Sequence record: NC_055721.1
Direction: 5' to 3' (one strand)
DNA: 64,000 bases
Source: Escherichia phage EcS1
In this document: piece by piece, positions 8,289 through 13,284 of the stretch
How positions within the stretch are numbered: position 1 is the first letter of the stretch
How the letters are laid out: each line of letters begins with the position of its first letter
Notes under the pieces: generated by a model
The model's input: only the letters and a program-made list of their open reading frames with translations
Told to the model about the DNA's origin: nothing
Database searches by the model: none
Translations under genes and position numbers: made by a program

Positions 8289-8363
8289 TGGTCGAGACAG
8301 TAGGGATCGAACCTACGACCTAGGACTTAGAAGGTCCTTGCTCTTCCGTCTGAGCTATGCCCC
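8289..8363 (-). tRNA. tRNA-Arg (anticodon TCT)
   Basis: Anticodon arm GGAC-CTTCTAA-GTCC, T-loop TTCGATC, CCA encoded. Confidence 0.7.
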
Positions 8364-8525
8364 GTCTTTGTATAAACGTTCTAAGTAAACATGCTCCATC
8401 GGTTTAACGATTTCGCCTTGTTTCAATAATTGTGTTTGAATAGGATTCAAATTATAAAATTTGATCACATCTCTGAGATCTTGTTCGCTATAATTAAAAG
8501 TTCCTACTTCTACTCCGATTTGCAT
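8355..8525 (-). CDS. hypothetical small protein (56 aa)
   Basis: Small ORF between tRNA genes, not in the supplied track (below its length cut-off); stop overlaps the tRNA-Arg 5' end. Confidence 0.25.
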   Translation of the reverse strand: MQIGVEVGTFNYSEQDLRDVIKFYNLNPIQTQLLKQGEIVKPMEHVYLERLYKDGA

Positions 8526-8537
8526 AAGTATCCTTTT

Positions 8538-8624
8538 TGGAGCTAGGAGTGAGATTCGAACTCACGAAAGCATAACGCTACTGGATTTGCAATCCAGCGC
8601 CTTTGACCACTCGGCAATCCTAGC
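8538..8624 (-). tRNA. class II-type tRNA with anticodon GCA (Cys) and U73 discriminator
   Basis: 87 nt; acceptor GCTAGGA/TCCTAGC, Ser/Tyr-like D-arm GCCGAGTGGTCAAAGGC, anticodon stem CTGGA/TCCAG with loop TTGCAAA, 15-nt variable arm, T-loop TTCGAAT. Confidence 0.5.
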
Positions 8625-8626
8625 AA

Positions 8627-8754
8627 ATGTTCAGGTGGGAGTCGAACCCACACGATTGAAGCCTCTCATCGGGTTACCTCTTACTCAGCTGGGTGCTTAA
8701 ACCAGCGTTTCAAACAGAGTCCGCCAACATGTCTACCGATTCCATCACTGAACA
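8627..8754 (-). ncRNA. tRNA-like stable RNA candidate (about 128 nt)
   Basis: Perfect 7-bp acceptor-like pairing (TGTTCAG/CTGAACA) next to a canonical T-arm (GTGGG-TTCGACT-CCCAC) and a Leu-like D region (GGAATCGGTAGAC), but too long for a tRNA and without a clean anticodon arm. Confidence 0.35.
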
Positions 8755-11102: not shown

Positions 11103-11177
11103 TGGTGGGAGCTGTTGGTAACGATCCAACCTCTCGAGCTCTTCAGGCAAGCGCTAATCCGTCTCAGCTAAACTCCC
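11103..11177 (-). tRNA. tRNA-Phe-like (anticodon GAA), weakened anticodon stem
   Basis: 75 nt, acceptor GGGAGTT/AGCTCCC plus ACCA; anticodon loop CTGAAGA; two mismatches in the anticodon stem and an atypical T-loop. Confidence 0.4.
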
Positions 11178-11693: not shown

Positions 11694-11787
11694 TGGAGGA
11701 AGCTGTGAGATTTGAACTCACGGAACCTGTCCCCAGGACCTCTAGTTTTCAAGACTAGTGCAATAAACCAGACTCTGCCAAGCTTCC
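11694..11787 (-). tRNA. tRNA-Ser (anticodon TGA)
   Basis: 94-nt class II tRNA; anticodon arm CTAGT-CTTGAAA-ACTAG, long variable arm, T-loop TTCAAAT, CCA encoded. Confidence 0.7.
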
Positions 11788-13195: not shown

Positions 13196-13284
13196 TGGTG
13201 CACCGAGAAGGACTCGAACCTACGAAGCTCATTACAAGCAGGAGATTTACAGTCTCCACCCTTTGCCACTCGGGTCATCGATGC
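13196..13284 (-). tRNA. tRNA-Tyr (anticodon GTA)
   Basis: 89-nt class II tRNA; D region CCCGAGTGGCAAAGGG and anticodon arm GGAGA-CTGTAAA-TCTCC resemble E. coli tRNA-Tyr; CCA encoded. Confidence 0.65.

Follow-up and report, generated by a model that had tools for sequence, protein, structure and literature searches.

The window analysed here is a 64,000-nucleotide stretch of the genome of Escherichia phage EcS1 (sequence record NC_055721.1), and it carries a tRNA-Cys gene with the anticodon GCA whose variable region forms a hairpin. tRNA-Cys has been described as a class I tRNA (PMC4810241). The class I shape, with a variable loop of 4-5 nt, is not found in this gene, where the region has 15 nt and includes a 3-bp hairpin. 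We propose that the gene probably encodes a functional phage tRNA-Cys whose variable region grew into a short hairpin arm. Judging from its sequence, it is most likely an ordinary cysteine decoder in an unusual body. The gene belongs to a large, conserved family of phage tRNA genes that is widespread and apparently undescribed.

A conserved family of phage tRNA-Cys genes with a hairpin arm

The gene is 87 nt long and lies on the minus strand, with its 5' end at position 8624 and its 3' end at position 8538 (full sequence in minus-strand orientation: GCUAGGAUUGCCGAGUGGUCAAAGGCGCUGGAUUGCAAAUCCAGUAGCGUUAUGCUUUCGUGAGUUCGAAUCUCACUCCUAGCUCCA). ARAGORN called a tRNA-Cys(gca) of 87 nt with a score of 117.6, and the general tRNA model of Rfam (RF00005) gave a full-length match over positions 1-71 (59.1 bits, E=1.6e-12; gathering score, 29). 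In the Rfam alignment, UUGCAAA formed the anticodon loop and 13 inserted bases fell in the variable region. The minimum free energy (MFE) fold was a cloverleaf with a variable-arm hairpin (-31.1 kcal/mol, z=-3.05). The general features of a tRNA are all present: a cloverleaf with a 7-bp acceptor stem, D, anticodon and T arms, and the T loop UUCGAAU, in a 7/5 acceptor/T arrangement. An initial annotation of the window, made from the sequence alone, had placed at 8538-8624 an 87-nt class II fold with a 7-bp acceptor stem, a 5-bp anticodon stem, the loop TTGCAAA, a Ser/Tyr-type D arm, a 15-nt variable arm, the anticodon GCA and a U73-CCA end. ARAGORN, Rfam and the MFE fold agree that the gene is real, every one of these elements was verified, and the strand, which had been left unstated, is the minus strand. 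The same annotation had allowed for a better fold with a canonical anticodon assignment; none of the tools used proposed any other anticodon for 8538..8624.

A blastn search recovered 30 phage records at 84-87% identity over at least 80% of the query, mostly from Karamvirus (PG7, myPSH1140, Pet-CM3-4 and others), where the copies are mostly annotated as tRNA-Cys with no comment on the arm. Long-arm tRNA-Cys genes of 85-87 nt are also found in Caulobacter and Brevundimonas phages, and a sequence identical to that of the window is present in the IMG/VR genome L071 (175,437 bp). A search pattern made of the 3' half of the anticodon loop, a long spacer, the T loop, N11 and UCCA matched 108 IMG/VR viral contigs. 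Almost all of these carry a long-arm tRNA-Cys of 82-93 nt according to ARAGORN, and 81 sequences are unique. When the pattern was given class I spacing, as expected for short-arm tRNA-Cys, at least 120 matches were found in the IMG/VR viral contigs. With 81 unique long-arm forms and the short-arm forms alongside, long-arm genes make up a sizeable minority of phage tRNA-Cys genes.

The long-arm pattern was also searched in 100,044 bacterial and archaeal species genomes (298 Gb), where it gave 18 matches. Thirteen of these were real, and 11 of the 13 stood in clusters, with 5-19 tRNA genes in the stretch retrieved. A blastn search of 5,426 complete E. coli genomes returned no match even at E=10, so no host or prophage counterpart exists there. 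The family as delimited here comprises tRNAs with a 7/5 cloverleaf, a variable region of 12-22 nt, the anticodon GCA and a U73-CCA end, carried by phage genomes or tRNA arrays, and the window gene has all of these features. The two largest metagenomic subfamilies gave no blastn match among cultured phages. One metagenomic subfamily (L014, L029, L059 and similar sequences; 14 of the 81 unique sequences) has G8-G9, and not the near-universal U8, together with the D loop GGAUGGUAA; this G8-G9 subfamily has no counterpart among cultured phages.

The tRNA structure is maintained far beyond chance, with covariation in all helices. Across 55 diverse family members, 92% of base-pair cells were paired, and double changes were found in 403 cells and at 20 of the 23 pairs. 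None of 500 shuffles reached the observed value, and slid controls were 28-43% paired. The stem of the variable arm itself covaries at all three of its pairs within the window's subfamily (AGC/GCU, GGG/CCC, GAU/GUC), and at pair 7:66 the combinations G.U, A:U and G:C are all found among Karamvirus genomes. The segments of the window gene are listed in Table 1.

Table 1. Segments of the tRNA-Cys(GCA) gene, with positions in the window
Feature	Positions	Strand	Basis
Whole tRNA-Cys(GCA), class II form, encoded CCA	8538..8624	minus	ARAGORN 117.6; Rfam 59.1 bits; MFE cloverleaf
Acceptor stem, 5' strand GCUAGGA (nt 1-7)	8618..8624	minus	perfect pairing with 8542..8548; 7/7 pairs covary in the family
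U8 U9, D arm and G26	8598..8617	minus	segmentation; D stem 98% paired in 55 relatives
D arm parts: G10-C12/G23-C25 (3 bp), G13.A22, 11-nt loop GAGUGGUCAAA	within 8598..8617	minus	
Anticodon arm CUGGA-UUGCAAA-UCCAG	8581..8597	minus	5-bp stem perfect; A36-A37-A38 present
Anticodon GCA (reads UGC/UGU)	8588..8590	minus	plus strand tgc; ARAGORN anticodon position 35
Variable arm, 15 nt, U-AGC-GUUAU-GCU-UUC	8566..8580	minus	3-bp stem AGC/GCU, loop GUUAU, 3' tail UUC
T arm GUGAG-UUCGAAU-CUCAC	8549..8565	minus	100% paired in 55 relatives
Acceptor stem, 3' strand UCCUAGC (nt 66-72)	8542..8548	minus	pairs with nt 1-7
Discriminator U73	8541	minus	plus strand a
Genome-encoded 3' CCA	8538..8540	minus	plus strand tgg

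Synthetase identity and decoding of cysteine codons

The major determinants of cysteine identity are U73 and the GCA anticodon, and U73 alone gives minihelices cysteine identity (PMC9976931). The window tRNA has both. The initial annotation had named them as the main elements recognised by cysteinyl-tRNA synthetase (CysRS) and had described the body as Tyr/Ser-like, a view supported by the cited review and by the geometry of the D and variable arms. Critical elements for other identities are A73 and U35 for Tyr, A73 and A15-U48 for Leu, and the long variable arm together with G1-C72/G2-C71 for Ser (PMC9976931). The window tRNA carries U73 and C35, and A73 was found in all 30 phage Tyr tRNAs; the short-arm class II shape of Tyr is present, with a layout of (1, 3, 5, 3) beside the modal (1, 3, 4, 3) of phage Tyr tRNAs. 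Its U73 and G15:C48 also set it apart from Leu, since the unique phage Leu tRNAs tabulated have A73 in 49/49 and U48 in 48/49. Among 66 unique phage Ser tRNAs tabulated from the collected loci, the variable regions have 15-21 nt and stems of 5-7 bp, compared with the 3-bp stem of the window tRNA. The acceptor stem of the latter starts with G1:C72 but continues with C2:G71 and U3:A70, where phage Ser tRNAs have G2:C71 (66/66) and A3:U70 (63/66). In the long-arm Cys family, the variable regions have 12-16 nt, arm stems are of about 3 bp and positions 2:71 and 3:70 vary freely.

The window tRNA thus has both major CysRS determinants and lacks those of the tyrosyl-, leucyl- and seryl-tRNA synthetases (TyrRS, LeuRS and SerRS), and charging with cysteine appears to be the best-supported reading. 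CysRS is a class I enzyme that approaches the tRNA opposite the variable region, so that an extra arm should not interfere.

The use of cysteine codons was examined in the 75 open reading frames (ORFs) of the window that have T4 homologues (58% identity overall). In the window, 97 of 163 UGY codons (UGU or UGC) are aligned with Cys in the T4 homologues, and in the reverse direction 97 of 185 T4 Cys positions are aligned with UGY; the commonest substitute at these sites, in both directions, is Ser. The genetic code is standard in the window, with UGY read as Cys. The initial annotation had put forward both decoding of UGY as Cys and recoding by this tRNA. These alignments contradict recoding, which we rejected; decoding as Cys is the best reading. 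In the conserved ORFs, UGU is used 128 times and UGC 53 times, the window having a G+C content of 38%. A preference for UGU in an AT-rich phage fits a supply role for the tRNA, without proving one.

In the tRNA set of the window, which also holds a separate tRNA-Tyr and tRNA-Ser, no tRNA other than the GCA tRNA decodes Cys. Among 130 loci with a long-arm Cys tRNA, a short-arm Cys tRNA is also present in only 5. When tRNA-rich loci are considered, the long-arm tRNA-Cys is the sole Cys tRNA in 45 of 49, and a Tyr tRNA is also found in 27 of the 49. We propose that the long-arm tRNA-Cys would be co-transcribed with the rest of the phage tRNA cluster, that host enzymes would trim it, its CCA end being already encoded, and that the host CysRS would charge it with cysteine. 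The charged tRNA would then read UGU and UGC as cysteine, adding to the host tRNA-Cys supply during infection. E. coli K-12 has a single tRNA-Cys gene, cysT.

Several observations weigh against this proposal. The gene is absent at the matching spot in the close relatives Serratia X20 and Erwinia Gravdalen, and is therefore dispensable. The window tRNA has G15:C48 and G13.A22, whereas E. coli cysT has G15:G48 and A13.A22; the G15-G48 pair is a strong determinant for E. coli CysRS, conserved in only a few bacterial species (PMC9976931). Lacking G15:G48 and A13.A22, the window tRNA might be charged poorly by an enterobacterial CysRS. U73 is also present in the window tRNA-Ser and in 10 of 35 unique phage Ser(UGA) tRNAs, so that U73 alone cannot exclude SerRS. 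Finally, all 81 unique long-arm sequences have U73, but U73, the 3' half of the anticodon loop and the T loop were fixed by the search pattern, which makes this invariance partly circular. Only the control with a non-U discriminator bears on the constancy of U73 in the family; in the IMG/VR viral contigs it gave 3 matches, none of them a GCA tRNA.

Origin of the arm and competing explanations

The stems of the window tRNA agree at 25/34 positions both with those of L229, a short-arm phage tRNA-Cys of 78 nt whose variable loop has 6 nt, and with those of the Colossus long-arm tRNA-Cys; for E. coli tyrT and cysT the agreement is 14/34 and 8/34, respectively. At unpaired positions and those of the tertiary core, by contrast, E. 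coli tRNA-Tyr is matched at 24/29 in the window tRNA, 27/29 in PG7 and 28/29 in L075. The matching core includes the rare U9, the D loop (GAGUGGUCAAA in the window, identical at 9 of 11 positions), the UUC tail at the 3' side of the arm and the T loop. A nearest-neighbour test was run on 44 positions outside the search pattern, with group sizes equalised. The nearest neighbour of the family members was a short-arm phage tRNA-Cys in 63 of 81 cases, among the matches listed, and a Tyr tRNA in 2 of 81. Earlier tests of this kind, based on fixed positions or on core positions, were ambiguous between Ser and Tyr and were confounded by group size and by pattern-fixed positions. The phage Tyr tRNA set is structurally heterogeneous and unfit for a fair covariance model.

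Long-arm and short-arm forms occur together in clusters at 80-85% identity, and variable regions of 5, 6 and 12-22 nt are found among close relatives. An 18-nt class II-type D region is present in 40 of 88 unique short-arm phage tRNA-Cys sequences, among the matches listed. Since the stems tie the window gene to short-arm phage tRNA-Cys and not to the window tRNA-Tyr, we conclude that the arm is probably a labile insertion or deletion within the phage tRNA-Cys lineage, for which the sequences would allow gain or loss either way. The Tyr-like loops are best read as a structural solution for a short extra arm. The 78-nt short-arm form, in which the D region has 18 nt and is of class II type while the variable loop has 6 nt, represents 28 of the 88 unique sequences (L143-L262, among the matches listed) and is an apparent intermediate between the class I and class II shapes.

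A recent switch from tRNA-Tyr, in which a duplicate gene gained U35C and A73U, losing the TyrRS determinants and creating those of CysRS in two steps, would account for the Tyr-like core, for an alignment with tyrT that is gap-free outside the arm loop and for an arm length distribution equal to that of Tyr tRNAs (mean difference of 0.03 nt on shared contigs). We consider it very unlikely, given the stem identities and nearest neighbours described above; moreover, CbK-type phages have long-arm Cys tRNAs without a tRNA-Tyr (PMC3556154), and the likeness of the loops may be structural convergence on a Tyr-type short arm. The initial annotation had suggested derivation from the tRNA-Tyr at 13196..13284. 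When the alignment was made, this gene was 65% identical to the tRNA-Cys, with a different D-region layout and a variable region of 17 nt as against 15 nt, which speaks against such a derivation. The description of the gene as a chimera holds insofar as a Tyr/Ser-like D arm and variable-arm geometry are combined with Cys determinants, but the gene is not singular, as it is part of a large conserved family. Mistranslation is quite improbable in our view: SerRS, recognising the long arm, would serylate the tRNA alone or beside CysRS, and some UGY codons would be read as Ser in phage or host proteins. The variable arm, and not the anticodon, guides recognition by SerRS (PMC9976931), and a long arm with G73 or U73 has been taken as a sign of Ser identity in allo-tRNAs (PMC5389517). 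U73 in the window tRNA-Ser, C11:G24 in 53 of 55 family members and a body whose sequence is about as near to phage Ser tRNAs as it is to those of any other class II type point in the same direction. However, the 3-bp stem and 15-nt region fall short of the Ser arm, whose variable region is about 5 nt longer on average on the same contig, and both acceptor pairs typical of phage Ser tRNAs are replaced. The link of U73 to GCA (108 contigs versus 0) is predicted by selection for CysRS and unneeded for SerRS. Close short-arm relatives exist, and UGY codons stand at conserved Cys positions.

It is also improbable, although less so, that the tRNA serves to evade or decoy a nuclease, its altered body resisting or soaking up a tRNA-Cys-directed ribonuclease of a host defence system or of the host shut-off by the phage. 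Cys decoding would then continue after destruction of the host tRNA-Cys. A decoy for a tRNA-targeting enzyme had been among the suggestions of the initial annotation. Phage tRNAs are described as rescuing infection from tRNA-cleaving defences, in the pairs Lys/PARIS, Tyr/retron-Eco7 and Thr/P2-OLD (PMC12445682). The body is far from that of the host tRNA-Cys, as the stem comparison with cysT and the blastn search of E. coli genomes indicate, and the family is strongly enriched in phages and tRNA arrays. No tRNA-Cys-targeting defence nuclease was found in the literature searched. The loop UUGCAAA is the same as that of the host, and in Karamvirus the whole anticodon stem-loop matches at 16 of 17 bases, so that the documented route of evasion through changes in the loop or anticodon stem is not seen. 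In phages, the short-arm siblings are no rarer than the long-arm forms. Evasion is nevertheless compatible with a functional tRNA-Cys and does not exclude it. Finally, we regard it as highly improbable that the gene is an inactive relic, a decaying tRNA-like sequence without function. Its absence from some close relatives would fit, but all stems are perfect, the CCA is encoded, and the family is conserved across phage families whose hosts belong to different proteobacterial classes. The covariation among 55 members and the compensatory changes between subfamilies, to which the three forms of pair 7:66 in Karamvirus can be added, led us to reject a degenerate pseudogene.

Within the reading of the gene as a functional tRNA-Cys, the long arm could be adaptive, a doubtful but conceivable extension: the host CysRS would still charge the tRNA, while a tRNA-directed nuclease of host or phage, or another tRNA-Cys-specific factor, would no longer recognise it, and the long-arm chassis would be a portable body for several identities that are read from the anticodon.

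Phage arrays with a long-arm tRNA-Cys also hold other tRNAs of at least 80 nt. These include Trp(cca) and Asn(gtt) with G73, Lys(ttt) and Ile(tat) with A73, and Lys(ctt), Met(cat) and Gly(tcc) with U73. Such tRNAs are located at L084 5434-5522, L104 10416-10504, L029 6295-6378, L002 2809-2895, L003 2670-2756, L018 2464-2551 and L017 1170-1263, among others. Their discriminators mostly fit the usual rule for the anticodon. The long-arm Ile(tat) tRNAs have variable regions of 20-24 nt and, in the sequences printed, a recurring motif near CCAGATTAG.

Genomic surroundings and relation to described tRNAs

The window comes from a T4-like enterobacterial phage (Straboviridae), and its flanks match Erwinia, Serratia and Enterobacter phages. 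The tRNA region spans 8.1-13.3 kb on the minus strand and contains 18 tRNAs for 18 amino acids, one each, with Ala and Val missing. A promoter and terminator scan of this region found fewer sites than in shuffled sequences and is therefore uninformative, and no synthetase gene linked to the long-arm tRNA-Cys was found in the region examined. The 18th tRNA, Phe(gaa) at 11103..11177 (minus strand), is missed by ARAGORN at default settings and scores 97.4 at a lowered threshold; Rfam finds it at 11106..11177 with 36 bits. The tRNA-Ser(UGA) at 11694..11787 (minus strand) has the discriminator U73 and not the usual G73. A 56-amino-acid ORF with a plausible ribosome-binding site (8355..8525, minus strand) lies between the tRNA-Cys and tRNA-Arg genes and extends 10 nt into the latter. 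In Karamvirus, tRNA-Cys and tRNA-Arg adjoin, and the order is Arg-Cys-Leu-Thr or Cys-Arg-Leu-Thr depending on the genome.

On the minus strand, a tRNA-like RNA of about 128 nt occupies 8627..8754, which places it 2 nt upstream of the tRNA-Cys. Its acceptor stem has 7 bp (UGUUCAG/CUGAACA), its D arm is of the Leu type (GGAAUCGGUAGAC), its T arm reads GUGGG-UUCGACU-CCCAC, and its expanded middle has about 70 nt. It is missed by default ARAGORN and by Rfam, and ARAGORN with introns allowed reports a Leu(aag) with a 39-nt intron (score of 103). The element is kept but unannotated in Karamvirus, with compensatory changes in the acceptor stem, the T stem and an internal hairpin; the z-score of its MFE is about 0. 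It shows no sequence similarity to T4 rnaC/rnaD, whose neighbourhood and general design are the same.

The textbook rule limits the long variable arm to Leu, Ser, bacterial Tyr and Sec tRNAs. In the family described here, a single isoacceptor lineage repeatedly crosses the line between the two classes; examples come from more than 100 phage contigs and from cultured phages that infect Enterobacter, Cronobacter, Klebsiella, Caulobacter and Brevundimonas. Should CysRS charging be confirmed, the family would provide natural evidence that Cys identity is independent of the variable region, as well as natural long-arm scaffolds for tRNA engineering. It would also be a warning for annotation pipelines, because isotype models may flag such genes as inconsistent.

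A search of the literature, in an incomplete library, found no paper connecting a phage tRNA-Cys with a variable arm, and the genome paper on phiCbK gives its list of tRNAs with no remark (PMC3556154). The genes themselves are already annotated as tRNA-Cys, and the closest described objects are the selC* tRNA-Cys and the allo-tRNAs. Compared with E. coli cysT, the window tRNA has the same anticodon GCA in an identical loop UUGCAAA, U73, G1:C72, a 3-bp D stem, a purine-purine 13.22 combination and 7/5 stems. It differs from cysT by its variable region (15 nt with a 3-bp hairpin versus 4 nt), by its D region (18 versus 16 nt), by the 15:48 and 13.22 combinations given above and by stems that agree at 8/34. 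With E. coli tyrT it shares U8-U9, an 18-nt D region, the loop GAGYGGYCAAA, the T loop UUCGAAU and an arm in which a single base precedes the 3-bp stem and a UUC tail follows it, the alignment being gap-free outside the arm loop; unlike tyrT, it has GCA and not GUA, U73 and not A73, and the stems agree at 14/34. The short-arm phage tRNA-Cys of L229 has a similar acceptor strand (GCUACGA, versus GCUAGGA in the window), an 18-nt D region, U73-CCA and the same anticodon loop, but its variable region has 6 nt and no hairpin.

The selC* tRNA-Cys has a long arm, U73 and GCA or UCA anticodons, and when its UCA form was co-expressed in E. coli with an engineered CysRS variant, the opal codon of a selD reporter was decoded (PMC5389517). 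It works in translation when cysteinylated, and a long arm is therefore compatible with CysRS (PMC5389517). This tRNA resembles tRNA-Sec in that its acceptor and T stems are arranged 8/4 and its acceptor and anticodon stems are longer; it is known from anaerobic bacteria, where a dedicated CysRS and a SelB copy sometimes accompany it (PMC5389517). The window tRNA shares its long arm, U73 and GCA, but is phage-borne and has a Tyr/Ser-type D arm and a 7/5 arrangement in place of the Sec-like 8/4. Allo-tRNAs, known from metagenomes and phages, are long-arm tRNAs with anticodons outside Leu, Ser and Tyr, and their discriminator is often U73 or G73 (PMC5389517). They have a 12-bp acceptor branch (8/4 or 9/3) and tRNA-Sec-like D arms, and are predicted to accept Ser (PMC5389517). 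The window tRNA is likewise long-armed, with U73 and an anticodon outside Leu, Ser and Tyr, but it has a 7/5 arrangement and a short arm, and is without the Ser acceptor-stem signature.

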